This document shows positions 2,660 through 31,232 of a stretch of 64,000 nt of DNA, piece by piece. Position 1 is the first letter of the stretch; each line of letters opens with the position of its first letter. The position numbers and the translations under genes were made by a program. The DNA is from an uncultured Prevotella sp. (GTDB lineage: Bacteria > Bacteroidota > Bacteroidia > Bacteroidales > Bacteroidaceae), in the NCBI GenBank assembly GCA_900770845.1, contig CAAGLS010000131.1, positions 214-64,213 on the forward strand, written 5' to 3'. Under the pieces are notes generated by a model. That model saw nothing but the letters and a program-made list of their open reading frames with translations, searched no databases and had not been told where the DNA came from.

Positions 2660-4081
2660 ATGAGCATCAAATATATTGCCGGCCTCGCTGTGGCCCTCCT
2701 CACCCTCTTTTCTTGTGACGACACCACCGACACCATTGGCGGCTCGCTGATTGGCAACGGTGATGCCATCGAGACGGCTACCGACACCTTCGTGGTGGCT
2801 ACGCAGTCGGTGGTGGCCGATTCTGTGCTGTCGCGCAACACCACAGGCTATTTGGGCAGAATCAAGGACCCGGAGACCGGAGCCTACGTGGAGGGCGACT
2901 TCATGACACAGTTTCATGTGATAGAGGATTACAGCCTGTTTCTGAACCGCGACTCCATCAAGAGCAGGTGGAATGGCGATGTCAGCGCCGACTCCTGCGA
3001 GCTGTTGTTCTATTACTCCGACTTCTATGGCGACTCGCTTGCCTCCATGAAGGCCCGCGTGTATGAGATGGACAAGCCCATGGTGGAGGGAACCAACTAC
3101 TACTCCGACTTCGACCCCATGAAGGCTGGCCTGATCCGCAAGAATGGATTCGCCGTAGACAAGGTGTATTCCATCACCAACCTCTCGCAGAGCACCTCCG
3201 AACGCTACAACTCCAACTATGTGCCTTATTTCAGCATTCCGCTCAACGACCCTTACACCGACAAGAACGGCGTGACCTACAACAATTTCGGCACTTACGT
3301 GATGAGGATGTATTACAGCCATCCCGAATACTTCAAGAACTCTGTGGCCTTGGCCAACCATGTGATTCCCGGCGTGTTCATCAAGCATGTCAGCGGACTG
3401 GGTTCTATGGCTTACATCAACTCTGTCAGGCTGCTGACCTACTATGACTATCAGCAGAACGACAGCGTGGGCGCCGTATACTCGTCGCTCGATGGCACGG
3501 AAGAGGTGCTGCAGACCTCGACCATCACCAACGACAAGGGAGTCATCGACCGCTTGGCCGCCGACAACAGCTGCACCTATCTGAAGACGCCCGCCGGCAT
3601 CTTCACGGAGGTCACCTTCCCCGTGGACGAGATCTTGGGCGGCTCCCACAGCAACGACAGCATCAGCAGCGCGCGGCTCGTGCTGCAGCGCATCAATTCG
3701 GAGACCACAAGCGACTATGCACTCAAACCGCCCTCAACGGTGCTGATTGTCCCCAAGGACAGCCTCTACTCCTTCTTCGAGAACAAGGAGATAGCCAACA
3801 GCCGGTATACATTCCTGGCCAACTACAGCAGCACCGACAACACCTACACGTTTAACAATATCTCTGGCCTGGTGCGGTTCATGAAGACGAGGAAGGGATT
3901 GTCGGCAGACTGGAACAAGGCCATCGTCGTGCCTGTCAGCACAACCACCACGACGGTGAACCAGTCGACCTATATCACCTCTGTTGTCCACGACATGTCG
4001 CTCACGAGCACCCGCCTTGTGGGGGGGAGCGGCACGACGCGCCCCGTGAGGCTCACCGTGATATACAGCAAGTTCAAGTGA
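2660..4081 (+). CDS. Lipoprotein, DUF4270-like family (hypothetical)
   Basis: SpII signal with lipobox (LLTLFSC). 473 aa. The Bacteroidales context after the glgA-like gene fits. The family assignment is from memory. Confidence 0.6.
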   Translation: MSIKYIAGLAVALLTLFSCDDTTDTIGGSLIGNGDAIETATDTFVVATQSVVADSVLSRNTTGYLGRIKDPETGAYVEGDFMTQFHVIEDYSLFLNRDSIKSRWNGDVSADSCELLFYYSDFYGDSLASMKARVYEMDKPMVEGTNYYSDFDPMKAGLIRKNGFAVDKVYSITNLSQSTSERYNSNYVPYFSIPLNDPYTDKNGVTYNNFGTYVMRMYYSHPEYFKNSVALANHVIPGVFIKHVSGLGSMAYINSVRLLTYYDYQQNDSVGAVYSSLDGTEEVLQTSTITNDKGVIDRLAADNSCTYLKTPAGIFTEVTFPVDEILGGSHSNDSISSARLVLQRINSETTSDYALKPPSTVLIVPKDSLYSFFENKEIANSRYTFLANYSSTDNTYTFNNISGLVRFMKTRKGLSADWNKAIVVPVSTTTTTVNQSTYITSVVHDMSLTSTRLVGGSGTTRPVRLTVIYSKFK

Positions 4082-5533: not shown

Positions 5534-6466
5534 ATGAAAATATCGTTCATCATTACTACTTACAACCTGCCCGCGGGGCTGCTCGTGGAGTGCGTCAACA
5601 GCATCCTGAGGCTTTCCCTGAGGCCTACCGAGCGAGAGGTCATCGTCATCGACGACGGCTCCGACATGAGTCCGCTCGAAGACTTGCTTGAGACTTCCGA
5701 AGACATCCTCTACCTGAGGCAGCCCAATGGCGGACTCTCCGCGGCACGCAACATGGGACTCCGCGTGGCCTCGGGCGACTACATCCAGTTTGTCGACGGC
5801 GACGATATGATTATCGCTGCTCCCTACGAGCATTGCCTCGACTTGGTGAGATTCCACAATCCCGACATGGTCTTGTTCAAGCTCTCCGATTCCGCCAACC
5901 AAAAGACTTCCTTCTCCTACGATGGTCCTGTGGACGGGGCGCAGTACATGCGCGACAACAACCTCAATGGCTCGGCCTGTGGCTATATCTTCAGGCGTTC
6001 CATCCTCGGCGACTTGCGCTTCACCCCCAAGACGCTCCATGAGGACGAGGAGTTCACCCCCCTGTTGGTGCTGCGCGCCCAGCGCATCTTCTGCGGCGAC
6101 TGTGCGGCCTATTACTACCGTCAGCGCAAGGAATCCATCATCCACAAGAAGAGCGGGAACCACCACCTTCGCCGGCTGATGGACATGGAGCGGGTGATAG
6201 GCCGATTGGTGGATGTGGCCGACAAGCTGCCTGTTGATGGCAAAGCGGCCTTGGAACGGCGGATAGCGCAGCTCACGATGGACTATCTCTACAATACCAT
6301 CAAGCTCACCCACAGCCGACGCCATCTGGAAGAGACCATGGAGAGGCTCCGCGACCACGGCCTCTATCCCTTGCCCGACAAGAACTATACGCGCAAGTAC
6401 CAGTTGTTCCGCAAGGCCATCGACACCAAAGTGGGACGCGACATGATGCTCATGCTCATCAGATAG
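5534..6466 (+). CDS. Glycosyltransferase family 2
   Basis: N-terminal ISFIITTYN...VIVIDDGSD...DGDD motifs of GT-A/GT2 enzymes. Confidence 0.85.
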   Translation: MKISFIITTYNLPAGLLVECVNSILRLSLRPTEREVIVIDDGSDMSPLEDLLETSEDILYLRQPNGGLSAARNMGLRVASGDYIQFVDGDDMIIAAPYEHCLDLVRFHNPDMVLFKLSDSANQKTSFSYDGPVDGAQYMRDNNLNGSACGYIFRRSILGDLRFTPKTLHEDEEFTPLLVLRAQRIFCGDCAAYYYRQRKESIIHKKSGNHHLRRLMDMERVIGRLVDVADKLPVDGKAALERRIAQLTMDYLYNTIKLTHSRRHLEETMERLRDHGLYPLPDKNYTRKYQLFRKAIDTKVGRDMMLMLIR

Positions 6467-6480
6467 GGGAGACGAAGACT

Positions 6481-7590
6481 ATGAAGATTCTTCTGATGGG
6501 CGAATACAGCAATGTGCATTGGACGCTGGCCGAGGGACTCAGGGCCTTGGGCCATGATGTCACTGTGCTCTCCAACGGCGACTTCTTCAAGAACTATCCC
6601 CGCGACATCGACCTCGTGCGCAAGCCGGGATGGCTCGGGGGGCTGGAGTATATGGCCAAGCTCCATTTCGTCAAGCCCATTCTGAGAGGCTATGATGTGG
6701 TGCAGCTCATCAACCCCATGTTCCTTGAGTTGAGGGCCGAGCGCATCTTCCCTGTCTATAGGTATCTGCGCCGCCACAACCGTGCCATGTTTCTCGGTGC
6801 CTTCGGCATGGACTATTATTGGGTGCATGAGAACGACACGAGGAAGCCCCTCCGCTACAGCGATTTCAATATCGGCGATCAGCTGCGCCATAATGCCGAC
6901 GCGGAGAAAGAGCGTCGCGACTGGGTGGGTACGGCCAAGGAGAGGCTCAACAAGACCATCGCTGCCGACTGCGACGGCATCATCGCCGGACTCTATGAAT
7001 ACAAGGTTTGCTACCAGCCGTTGTTTCCCGAGAAGACTACTTTCATTCCCTTTCCCATTAAGTCCAAGCCTGATGTTGGCATAATAAAGGACAAGCTGCC
7101 GGGCGACAAGATACGGCTCTTCATAGGCATCAACCGTGAGCGGGCTGCGTATAAGGGTACCGACATCATGCTCGCCGCCGCCCGTCGGTTGGCCTCCCGC
7201 TACCCCGAGAGGGTGGAGCTGCGTGTGGCAGAGAATGTCCCCTTCAAGGAATATGTGGAGATGATGAATGGCAGCGACGCCATCCTCGACCAGCTCTATA
7301 GCTACACCCCATCGATGAATCCTTTGGAGGCCATGAGCAGGGGCGTCATCTGCGTGGGTGGGGGAGAGCCCGAGAACTATGAGATACTGGGCGAGGACCG
7401 TCTGCGCCCTATCGTCAACGTGCAGCCCAACGAGGAGAGCGTCTATAGCCAGTTGGAGCTGCTTGTGCTGCACCCGGAAAGGATTGGCCGGTTGAAGCGT
7501 CAGGGCATTGAATACATCCGCCGCCACCACGACTATAAGACGGTGGCCCAAAGATACTTGGATTTCTATGTCGCAAAAGGTAACTTATAA
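6481..7590 (+). CDS. Glycosyltransferase family 1 (GT4-like)
   Basis: 369 aa. C-terminal GT-B fold features (E-x7-E-like region, ...LEAMSRGVICVGG...). Confidence 0.75.
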   Translation: MKILLMGEYSNVHWTLAEGLRALGHDVTVLSNGDFFKNYPRDIDLVRKPGWLGGLEYMAKLHFVKPILRGYDVVQLINPMFLELRAERIFPVYRYLRRHNRAMFLGAFGMDYYWVHENDTRKPLRYSDFNIGDQLRHNADAEKERRDWVGTAKERLNKTIAADCDGIIAGLYEYKVCYQPLFPEKTTFIPFPIKSKPDVGIIKDKLPGDKIRLFIGINRERAAYKGTDIMLAAARRLASRYPERVELRVAENVPFKEYVEMMNGSDAILDQLYSYTPSMNPLEAMSRGVICVGGGEPENYEILGEDRLRPIVNVQPNEESVYSQLELLVLHPERIGRLKRQGIEYIRRHHDYKTVAQRYLDFYVAKGNL

Positions 7591-26948: not shown

Positions 26949-27033
26949 AAACGCGTTTGTTTTTTCTTCTGTCGATTTGAGCCACGTTTTTAGTAGGTCC
27001 GGCTGCATCGCTGAAGAAAAAACAAACGCGTTT
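26949..27033. promoter_or_regulatory. Long hairpin: two perfect 21-bp inverted arms (AAACGCGTTTGTTTTTTCTTC / GAAGAAAAAACAAACGCGTTT) separated by a 43-nt loop. Lies just after the nitroreductase gene.
   Basis: Read from the sequence. Could act as a terminator for the upstream gene, or be part of the structured leader of the downstream gene. Confidence 0.5.
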
Positions 27034-27200: not shown

Positions 27201-27283
27201 GTTGTCGCGGACTATCGTGCCAGTTGTCACGGACTATCGTGACAATTGACACGGACTATCGTGACAACTGTCACAAATGTTGT
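27201..27283. repeat. Second copy of the 83-bp tandem 22-bp palindromic-unit module seen at 1-83
   Basis: About 90% identical to positions 1-83 (gttgtcGcggactatcgtgccagttgtcacgGactatcgtgAcaattGacacGgactatcgtgacaactgTcacAaatgttgt). Confidence 0.85.
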
Positions 27284-28958: not shown

Positions 28959-30125
28959 ATGAAAGTGAATTTGAAGACATTTGAGGGTGTCAACCGCCCC
29001 ATGTACGTGCTTGAGGAACAGCGGCTGAGAAACAACTTGGAAATCATCAGTGGTGTTGCGCGCCGTGCCGACGTGGAAATCATCATGGCCTTCAAGGCAT
29101 ACGCCTTGTGGCGCACCTTTCCCATCCTGCGTGAGTATATCGGCGCCACAACGGCAAGCTCGCTCTATGAGGCGCGGTTGGGAAAAGAGGAGTTTGGAGC
29201 TCCGGCCCATACTTTCTCCCCTGCCTATACGGATTATGAGATTGACGAGACAGCCCGATGCTCGTCGCATCTGATATTCAACTCGCTCAGCCAGTATGCG
29301 CGCTTCCACGAGAGGGCCTCACGGGCCAACGGAAAGTTGCTGATGGGGCTGCGAGTGAATCCTGAATACAGTGAGATTCAGACCCTGCTCTACAATCCTT
29401 GTGCGCCAGGCTCGCGCTTCGGTGTCCTGGCGGCGAGTCTGCCCGAGCAGTTGCCAGCCGACATCTCTGGTTTCCATATCCATTGCCACTGCGAGAGTGG
29501 AAGCGACGCCTTCGAGCATACGCTGGCCCATATCGAGGACAAGTTCGCTCGGTGGTTTCCGCAGCTGAAATGGATCAACTTCGGTGGTGGCCATCTGATG
29601 ACCCGCCGCGACTATGATGTCGACCGCTTGGTGGCCACGTTGCAGCTGTTCCACCAACGCTATCCTTGGCTTCACGTCATACTGGAGCCGGGCAGCGCCT
29701 TCGGCTGGCAGACGGGACCGTTGGTGAGCCAAGTGCAGGACATCGTGGAGAACCACGGAATCAAGACTGCCATCCTCAACGTCAGCTTTACCTGCCACAT
29801 GCCCGACTGTCTGGAGATGCCCTACCATCCGAGCGTGCGTGGCGCGCGTGTCGTCGACGAGGGCAGCTGCGGGGACGAGCCCCACGTCTATCGGCTTGGA
29901 GGCAACTCCTGCCTGAGTGGCGACTTTATGCAGAGCTGGGCTTTCGACCATGAGCTGCAGGTGGGGGAGAACATCATCTTCGAGGACATGCTCCACTACA
30001 CTACGGTGAAGACAACAATGTTCAACGGTGTGACCCATCCCGCCATCGTCCTGGCCCGTCCCGACGGCGAACTCGTTGCCCTCCGCGAGTTCGGCTATGA
30101 GGATTATAAGAACAGGATGGACTGA
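28959..30125 (+). CDS. nspC: Carboxynorspermidine/carboxyspermidine decarboxylase
   Basis: ORF 28896..30125 (its track start is a TTG). Start moved to MKVNLKTFEG. Fold III PLP decarboxylase with strong NspC-like sequence. Confidence 0.8.
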   Translation: MKVNLKTFEGVNRPMYVLEEQRLRNNLEIISGVARRADVEIIMAFKAYALWRTFPILREYIGATTASSLYEARLGKEEFGAPAHTFSPAYTDYEIDETARCSSHLIFNSLSQYARFHERASRANGKLLMGLRVNPEYSEIQTLLYNPCAPGSRFGVLAASLPEQLPADISGFHIHCHCESGSDAFEHTLAHIEDKFARWFPQLKWINFGGGHLMTRRDYDVDRLVATLQLFHQRYPWLHVILEPGSAFGWQTGPLVSQVQDIVENHGIKTAILNVSFTCHMPDCLEMPYHPSVRGARVVDEGSCGDEPHVYRLGGNSCLSGDFMQSWAFDHELQVGENIIFEDMLHYTTVKTTMFNGVTHPAIVLARPDGELVALREFGYEDYKNRMD

Positions 30126-30131
30126 AATACA

Positions 30132-30403
30132 AATCACAATTCATAATTCTTGGCCGCATAATATAGGCTGGTCCTAAAAAATAGGTTTGGAAAACAAGAC
30201 GATACGGACACGTGTTGTTTCGGTCGTCTTCTGCATCTGTGGGTCTCAAAACGTCAAGTCTCATCGGTCGTGTAGCCCGCTACGCTCCCTCTTCAACTTA
30301 CGTATTGAGTCCCGATAGCATGCAGAATAAGCTTCGGCCTATTTTTTAGAACCGACTTGTCATATAAATTGTCTTTGGCGCAAAGAATTATGAATTGTGA
30401 ATC
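30132..30403. repeat. MITE-like element of about 270 bp. Its imperfect terminal inverted repeats are about 55-60 bp: outer arms aatcacaattcataattctt / aagaattatgaattgtgaat, inner arms cctaaaaaatagg / cctattttttag. No internal ORF.
   Basis: Read from the sequence. Fills the whole intergenic gap between the convergent nspC and 30402..31232 genes and overlaps the latter's stop codon. Confidence 0.5.
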
Positions 30404-31232
30404 AAAAGAGGAATCTGATATAGGCACGGTCGTCGAATGACTTCTGGTTTCTTCTCCAGCCTTTCGTGGCCTTGAAGTTTCCAATGCATAGAGGGTCGTC
30501 TTTCAATTGGCGCGCCAAGAGGTCTTCGCTCTCGCTGAGTGTGGGGCGAAGAAAAGGATAGCCGTCGGTGGCAAGCACAATCTCCTTGGGTTGGGCTTGC
30601 CACAGTCCCAACTTGCGGATGTTCAGACAGCGGGTCTTGCCCATCGGAATCTTGAACCCGTCGACCACGCTGTACTTGATGTTCTCGTATTTCATGGAGT
30701 TGACAAGTTCGGGCAGGATGGCACTTCGGCCAACATCGTTGCTGCGGAGCTCTTCCACAGTGGCTCCCTCCCTCAGGGCGCCGCGCAGCACCTGGGAGCG
30801 GATGCCGGCCAGCATCGCCTCGCCCGGCTTGGGGTTGTCGAAATAGCGTCCGCCGATGATGCACTGGCAATCGCCTATCATCCACACCTCATGGCGATAG
30901 CGCGAGTAGACAACCACGCTGGCGCACAGACGCTGCTCGGGGTGCGCCAGCAGCCTTTCTTTCACGGCGGATTCTGAAGGATAGGCCGAGGCGAGGGCGC
31001 GCGTCAGTCGTGTGGCGGCTATCTTGATGGTCGCCGCAAGGGGCAGGGCGGCTACGGCATCCTTGATCAGCAGCATGGCGTAGCGGCCGTTGGTCATCTG
31101 CGGATTGATGCGGAGCGGCGTCTTGCTCGTGCTGCCGTCGATAACGGCTATGAAGTCGTCAGTGACTGCTATGCCGTCCTCGCTCAGCTCGTCGCTGACC
31201 TTCCCTCTTATCAGGCTGTCGATGATTGTCAT
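30402..31232 (-). CDS. Hypothetical protein (about 276 aa), last gene of the ygiQ operon. Weak PPM/PP2C-like phosphatase motif pattern (…IDGSTSK…IGDCQC…LATDGYPF…).
   Basis: ORF 30402..31322, start tentatively at MTIIDSLIRGK. That start would overlap the ygiQ 3' end by about 74 nt, and a later start is possible. The fold assignment is inference only. Confidence 0.45.
   Translation of the reverse strand: MTIIDSLIRGKVSDELSEDGIAVTDDFIAVIDGSTSKTPLRINPQMTNGRYAMLLIKDAVAALPLAATIKIAATRLTRALASAYPSESAVKERLLAHPEQRLCASVVVYSRYRHEVWMIGDCQCIIGGRYFDNPKPGEAMLAGIRSQVLRGALREGATVEELRSNDVGRSAILPELVNSMKYENIKYSVVDGFKIPMGKTRCLNIRKLGLWQAQPKEIVLATDGYPFLRPTLSESEDLLARQLKDDPLCIGNFKATKGWRRNQKSFDDRAYIRFLF

Follow-up and report, generated by a model that had tools for sequence, protein, structure and literature searches.

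[quoted passage not shown] BrickBuilt and MITE464/PgRS are small, non-coding, intergenic sequences bounded by terminal inverted repeats (TIRs); they occur in tens of copies per genome and contain a variable number of internal tandem repeats, of 23 or 41 nt (PMC4596501). Their TIRs, which resemble GAGACCTTTGCA, match ISPg elements of the IS5 family (PMC4596501). We saw no sequence similarity between these MITEs and the Prevotella family, which has GGCYGGTTCTAWAAATTAGG as its TIR and a hairpin module of 79 nt, and for which no parent IS was found. PINSR, from Prevotella intermedia/nigrescens, is likewise a non-coding, dispersed intergenic repeat restricted to a Prevotella lineage; it has no TIRs, and its authors call it distinct from MITEs (PMC4755523), whereas the family described here has both TIRs and target duplications. 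A large census reports many MITEs in Prevotella and does not describe the present family (PMC11602168), and the TIR and core sequences gave no match in a full-text literature search. The family is a previously undescribed mobile repeat of a well-known kind, and no new class of element. It adds to rumen-type Prevotella a MITE family with defined ends, target, size classes and subfamilies, helps explain why the contigs of metagenome-assembled genomes (MAGs) break at one same repeat, and points to one source of variation between strains at the ends of genes.

The Correia elements of Neisseria and the enterobacterial ERIC (IRU) sequences are short and MITE-like, form a hairpin over their whole length, and enter short AT-rich targets with a small duplication. 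They lie between genes, in transcribed DNA, where they can influence termination or the processing of RNA. The target that they duplicate is TA (2 bp), and they are not known to have a tandem internal module, in contrast to the Prevotella family, which differs in phylum and sequence, duplicates a TTAA-like target of 4 bp and carries the 79-nt module. The BOX elements of Streptococcus pneumoniae consist of a left part, a variable number of copies of a middle module and a right part, with strong predicted secondary structure. The Prevotella MITE is modular in a like manner; it is unrelated in sequence and host, and it possesses TIRs and a target duplication, of which no clear signature is known in BOX. 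The PATEs derived from IS200/IS605 insert beside a fixed short sequence without duplicating it, and they are not known to have TIRs. Their likeness to the present family lies in being small, non-coding, hairpin-rich and dispersed; a palindrome-associated element of the IS200/IS605 type was ruled out by the TIRs and the 4-bp duplication.

The copy between nspC and its converging neighbor

The window (the whole stretch of 64 kb that was analyzed) contains a single copy of the family. It lies in a gap between the stop codon of nspC and that of a minus-strand gene for a 276-aa protein, the two genes being convergent. The nspC gene (28959-30125, plus strand) encodes carboxynorspermidine decarboxylase in a 388-aa form; its homologues come from named Prevotella sp. 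MAGs. The 276-aa protein (30402-31232, minus strand) has no Pfam family, and its gene is the last of a ygiQ-type radical-SAM cluster. The G+C content of the gap is 42%, compared to 55% for the whole window.

A sequence-only reading of this DNA had described nested inverted repeats at the borders of the gap. These are real and far beyond chance, as each arm sequence occurs at two places only in the window, compared to chance expectations of 0.05 for the outer and 0.01 for the inner arms. Repeat finding placed the outer arms at 30134-30154 and 30380-30400 (21 nt, 95% complementary), in agreement with the near-perfect 20/21 bp reported before. The inner arms, at 30170-30185 and 30338-30353, are 16 nt long and 94% complementary, instead of the 12-13 bp of that reading. 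The right outer arm had also been thought to overlap the stop codon of the 276-aa gene; it ends at 30400/30401 and abuts on the stop at 30402-30404. Folding of the whole element, proposed as a check, revealed one long hairpin: the interval 30120-30415 formed a continuous rod with an RNA minimum free energy of -104.8 kcal/mol (z = -7.9), a stability that was reached by none of 200 shuffles, and the minus strand gave z = -6.6.

With a probability of about 0.9, the interval 30166-30357 belongs to a family of non-autonomous DNA transposons (MITEs) found in rumen-type Prevotella/Bacteroidales, of which it is a single copy. The identification as MITE-like had been made for the entire 272 bp; the kind of element stands, and its extent does not, the mobile unit being the inner 192 bp. 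By blastn, the segment 30161-30359 was 87-94% identical to copies in five genomes. Both blastn and alignment placed the end of the similarity to other copies exactly at the inner repeats, with the outer arms outside. The TIRs of the mobile unit are accordingly about 20 bp in length, and the 55-60 bp proposed earlier were too long. On the basis of blastn, homology limits and alignment, the copy (192 bp, plus strand) is a short form without the 79-nt module. Together with 41 other short copies it showed a mean column identity of 89%.

Repeat finding and alignment defined the left TIR at 30166-30185 (plus strand; GGCTGGTCCTAAAAAATAGG, compared to the family consensus GGCYGGTTCTAWAAATTAGG) and the right TIR at 30338-30357 (minus strand; reverse complement AGTCGGTTCTAAAAAATAGG), whose outermost bases are off the consensus. 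The copy belongs to the rarer AAAAAAT subfamily, in which the TIR reads CTAAAAAATAGG. Inward of the left TIR is a subterminal region (30186-30217, plus strand; columns 21-57 of alignment A4) that is hypervariable between subfamilies. It is followed by the highly conserved core of 91 nt, the part of the rod that folds into its central stem and apical hairpin; the limits of the core, 30218-30308 (plus strand), were mapped onto the window from columns 58-150 of the same alignment. Two spacers connect the MITE to the outer arms. The left one (30155-30165) ends in TATA next to the MITE, and the right one (30358-30379) begins with TGTC and is partly complementary to the left in the fold. The right end of the window copy contains a 24-nt exact match to another copy, in the MAG W0P18.025 (L014:417-440).

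The window copy has no target-site duplication, its two flanking tetranucleotides being TATA and TGTC; three mismatches in the 4 nt were seen in only two of the 88 copies described below. The TIRs of the window copy match at 16 of 20 positions and are worn at the tips. With no target duplication, with these worn tips and with fixation in the lineage, it is probably an old, fixed copy that has stopped moving.

Copies, size classes and target sites of the family

We scanned a collection of species-representative genomes with a degenerate 19-nt pattern of the inner arm. The scan returned 30 stretches: 16 in W0P18.025, three in RUG753, four in SUG549, one each in RUG759 and SUG954, and five single matches in unrelated phyla that were taken to be chance. 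Many of the matches were located within a few hundred bases of contig ends, where a repeat that breaks assemblies would be expected. The 16 stretches of the MAG 'Bacteroidales bacterium W0P18.025' are on 15 contigs, and blastn detected several more copies. One of its contigs (L029) carries the orthologous nspC locus, of a sister-lineage type discussed below, and W0P18.025 is therefore the nearest available stand-in for the species of the window. Thus, the presence of multiple copies in the genome or its relatives, a BLASTN check suggested by the sequence-only reading, was borne out by counting in W0P18.025, with 64 kb of DNA covered for the window strain itself. A scan of metagenome contigs with a core pattern gave 104 stretches, and the anatomy of the family was examined on a set of 88 non-redundant full copies.

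The ends of the family are GGCYGGTTCTAWAAATTAGG and its reverse complement, with TIRs of 20 nt, which in the most common subfamily are perfect. The lengths of the copies form classes of approximately 192, 270, 348 and 428 bp, corresponding to zero to three tandem copies of the 79-nt module, which is itself a hairpin and is placed between the core and the right end. Roughly 40 copies each belong to the classes of ~192 and ~270 bp (n = 88) and a few to those of ~348 and ~428 bp; one copy has 2.9 tandem 79-nt units at 94% identity. At least three subfamilies exist, each with one and the same variant (TAAAAAT, TATAAAT or AAAAAAT) at its two ends, and the alignment also revealed chimeras between subfamilies. 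Mini forms reduced to the TIRs (38-84 bp) occur as well, some of them directly past stop codons. The minimal derivatives at L034:2952-2991 and L013:5879-5922 (38-44 nt) comprise scarcely more than the two TIRs, and one of them is located right after a TAA stop.

The family is unevenly conserved. The core of about 90 nt is almost invariant (columns vary by at most about 5-10%), an appearance that retrieval by the core pattern inflates and that has the same trend in the TIR-retrieved set. In the ~35 nt after the left end, 40-50% of the unique copies differ from the consensus per column. The consensus folds as a rod with pairing along almost the whole length of its body, and compensatory changes were seen at eight of 60 consensus pairs, mostly in the TIRs. 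The sequence-only reading had described a core with no ORF. Mechanical ORFs of 43-45 aa do cross the core in the window; they bear no coding signature. Across copies the variation in the frame open through the core is highest at second codon positions; therefore the frame is not coding, and a coding frame was rejected. An invariant core beside a hypervariable arm would fit a functional structured module. It is also compatible with recent spread and recombination between subfamilies. We consider it improbable that the core hairpin (91 nt in the window copy), which adjoins the hypervariable arm and the expandable 79-nt hairpin module, is a functional structured RNA or DNA module spread through Prevotella genomes by the MITE. 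Such a module could act at gene ends in processing or termination, or could be a structure required by an undescribed transposase of Bacteroidota whose insertions duplicate TTAA-like targets.

The copies were inserted at TTAA-like tetranucleotides, which were duplicated upon insertion. Perfect 4-nt direct repeats flank 42 of the 88 copies, and 26 more have one mismatch, compared to a mean of 12.5 and a maximum of 21 perfect repeats in 1000 trials in which left and right flanks were paired at random. In base composition, the T-T-A-A signal covers only the four flanking positions of each side and stops sharply beyond them. The flanks of each copy were also joined and searched against the retrieved loci for empty sites. 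Two precise pairs were found, both in W0P18.025. In one, the occupied site (L101:1443-1713) has TTCA on both sides and the empty site (L026:5265-5384) has TTCA once, with 99% identity over 120 nt; in the other, L055:6534-6804 is occupied and L032:4080-4198 is empty (TATA). Target-site duplications and empty sites had both been called for by the sequence-only reading. The former are present for the family and absent at the window copy; the latter are precise for other copies, and at the window locus the element is absent in distant relatives and no precise empty allele was found. That reading would have given up mobility for a single-copy sequence conserved in place among all relatives, or for a lack of target duplications or empty sites; as tested, all outcomes favor mobility.

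Copies are dispersed and almost always intergenic; among 88, a single one shares more than 60 nt with a long ORF. Nested self-insertions are seen, in which copies lie inside copies, at TTTA past the left end. By a crude ORF-based estimate, the median distance to gene 3' ends is 78 nt, compared to 127 nt to 5' ends. The stop codon TAA can be read on either strand of the TTAA-like target, and this may be the reason that copies often lie within a few bases of stop codons. By its defining features the family is one of MITEs, because it has TIRs, target duplications, empty sites, dispersion, small size and no coding content.

The cutting and joining would be performed by a transposase supplied in trans. 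A duplication of 4 bp is typical of some DDE families such as IS5. Within the window, the statement that no transposase is present was upheld: 49 of the 51 candidate ORFs were scanned against Pfam (two were outside the scan) with no match to a transposase family, and the scanned ORFs are ordinary metabolic and housekeeping genes. An autonomous partner with matching ends was not found in 1.2 Mb of retrieved loci, which were searched for TIR pairs 600-3500 bp apart, for generic pairs of inverted repeats with a duplication, and for multi-copy proteins. None of the TIR pairs more than 600 bp apart in these loci encloses a transposase. The search yielded nested or adjacent MITEs, a metallophosphatase gene in L074, and PF12784 genes. 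No match was obtained in plasmid or phage collections. The core pattern was likewise absent from viral contigs, in which the TIR pattern had three isolated single matches without a partner end, judged to be chance.

At L074:1-1950, two inverted MITE copies surround the metallophosphatase gene (PF00149), and the outer 55-nt flanks are exact reverse complements of one another. The layout is that of a composite element or, more likely, of a fold-back assembly chimera. The PF12784 genes encode 'transposase' proteins of the PD-(D/E)XK nuclease family (E = 2e-75) and are located at L076:2865-3791 and 6097-6963, and also in L140, L019, L101 and L108. This is the sole multi-copy protein named 'transposase' in the retrieved loci. 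Its distances to MITE copies vary, and no consistent linkage was seen.

A second dispersed non-coding repeat family, of ~375-400 nt, was encountered in the same loci. It starts with GGCACAGCGGATATTTTCCGTGG, its far end is imperfectly complementary to this start, and at least 20 copies or fragments are present, with no Rfam match. Examples are L083:1176-1550, L135:5846-6203, L070:2171-2316 and 2984-3088, and L034:2989-3096, with a fragment at L002:3079-3119. The MITE is sometimes found inside this second family (L097 and L132).

Orthologous loci, outer arms and alternative readings

The window-type gap (276 nt, with both outer arms) is also found in an independent ENA contig of 149 kb (L044), which is 98.5% identical to the window over 12.7 kb, with few SNPs. 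The right outer arm and the adjoining part of the element are present, again with few SNPs, in six further independent assemblies, and the flanking genes are both intact and syntenic. The arrangement is therefore no assembly artefact. Contigs do often break in the MITE repeat, and the metagenome contig L074 has a suspicious large palindrome around two copies; against this evidence from independent assemblies, a palindromic layout produced by a fold-back chimera at the repeat is almost inconceivable at the window locus.

A sister lineage at ~94-96% nucleotide identity (L002, L003, L029 and L041-L043) has a gap of 165 nt. This gap shares with the window only the first 23 nt past nspC, including TCACAATTCATAATT of the left outer arm. 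The right outer arm is absent, and a palindromic mini-element of 72 bp with related ends is located flush against the stop codon of the 276-aa gene. Relatives at 84% identity have a gap of 89 nt with a simple hairpin and no MITE; one relative at 87% has a different neighboring gene, with a simple G+C-rich hairpin and no MITE. Thus, the element is absent in the 84-87% relatives, is replaced by the 72-bp derivative in the sister lineage, and there is no conservation of its sequence at the site. The junction of the right arm with the gene was sought in metagenomes as a trace of an empty allele of the window locus, with no match.

Two observations on the sister lineage are of note. Its nspC gap is mostly a 40-nt fragment of the second repeat family and another repeated piece of 31 nt. 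In addition, the protein P0242 (295 aa) is a sister-lineage allele of the 276-aa gene in which the stop codon beside the mini-MITE has been lost. It reads on for 19 residues (…ISFLVYGWYYKFGRVVLGTKYDPT), and this tail appears to be encoded by the mini-element; P0242 would be an example of a repeat that alters the C-terminus of a protein.

The outer left arm (30134-30154, plus strand), of which the first 15 nt (TCACAATTCATAATT) are common to the sister lineage, and the outer right arm (30380-30400, minus strand), which is exclusive to the window-type lineage and abuts on the stop at 30402-30404, were delimited by repeat finding and comparison. Both are outside the MITE. Among all retrieved sequences the outer arms and spacers occur at the window locus only. 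When the complementarity of the flanks was compared across copies, the window-type locus alone stood out, scoring 37 where the 99th percentile was 18. Once the MITE is taken out, its flanks form a hairpin of -28.7 kcal/mol (z = -7.5), in which the position of the MITE is in an AT-rich loop. A general preference of the family for hairpin loops was rejected, as the flanks of its other copies pair no better than flanks combined at random.

Three accounts of these arms have to be weighed. We give about even odds to the account in which the outer arms and spacers are a pre-existing hairpin between the converging genes, into whose AT-rich loop the MITE landed. It is favored because the flanks pair perfectly over their outer 18 nt and poorly close to the MITE, as a stem and a loop would. 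The missing target duplication is explained either by alteration of the right flank after insertion or by the age of the copy. Alternatively, the outer inverted repeat arose after insertion: template switching on the MITE hairpin during replication would have copied the left flank in inverted form to the right, extending the palindrome. Long hairpins are known to provoke template switching. The left arm is common to the sister lineage and the right arm is unique to the window lineage, and a replaced right flank would be expected to have no target duplication. The gradient from a perfect outer 18 nt to poor pairing by the MITE, with a length difference of 11 nt, speaks however for a stem plus loop and not for an inverted copy of uniform age, and the palindrome is not extended in this way at any other copy of the family; we regard this account as rather unlikely. 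In the third account, the whole interval of 267-272 bp (30134-30400) is a single mobile element with composite TIRs of 55-60 bp. The pairing is indeed continuous from the outer arms through the spacers to the inner arms, and the outer arms are a highly non-random inverted repeat of 21 nt. Yet approximately 100 related copies all end at the inner repeats, the arms (TCACAATTCATAATTCTT) are locus-specific and, like the spacers, are found nowhere else beside a copy, the other 86 copies tested have no flanking inverted repeats, and the sister lineage has the left outer arm without the right arm and without the element. A single element of this extent is highly improbable.

The remaining alternative denies mobility altogether and takes the interval as primarily a conserved structure, either a bidirectional terminator or a structured non-coding RNA, as the sequence-only reading had allowed. 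The position between converging genes, the very stable fold of both strands, the simple hairpins in the same gap of relatives and the strong conservation of the family core with a few compensatory pair changes would agree with such a function. The computed searches do not support it as the primary identity. A scan of the window interval and of one long copy with the covariance models of Rfam 15 gave only miRNA/sRNA matches of 18-25 bits, which is chance level compared to thresholds of 72-83; no tRNA or tmRNA was found; and no intrinsic terminator-like site, with a hairpin and a T-run, was found in 29900-30650, the outer stem being AT-rich. Moreover, relatives have no conserved form of the sequence in this gap, and it recurs at numerous unrelated sites, where target duplications and empty sites are seen. 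We therefore hold a primarily non-mobile structure to be very improbable, and retain the MITE copy as the identity of 30166-30357. A secondary role of this copy as a terminator or RNA is possible, as is a terminator-like role of the outer hairpin. If transcribed from either gene, the rod of 267 nt would form a very stable RNA hairpin, which could block read-through or be processed.

Several smaller repeats were seen beside these elements. The 15-mer TCACAATTCATAATT of the outer arm was rejected as a high-copy motif: beyond the window locus, in 1.2 Mb, it was found once, in W0P18.025 (L038:4829), and with one mismatch as a heptamer repeat at one locus. At L038:4815-4885 two occurrences of the motif shortly precede the start of a gene, and a GGCGCGC-rich stretch follows each of them. 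At L020:3916-3960 (the same locus as in L073 and L103) it appears as the heptamer TCATAAT repeated in runs, with a MITE copy ~70 nt away. Within the window, one 15-nt sequence (GTGCCAGTTGTCACG) makes short inverted-repeat pairs at both 15-76 and 27217-27274, which suggests another small repeated hairpin motif. A perfect inverted repeat of 21 nt (AAACGCGTTTGTTTTTTCTTC) with a spacer of 43 nt is located at 26949-27033, in the gap ahead of a DUF4494 gene.
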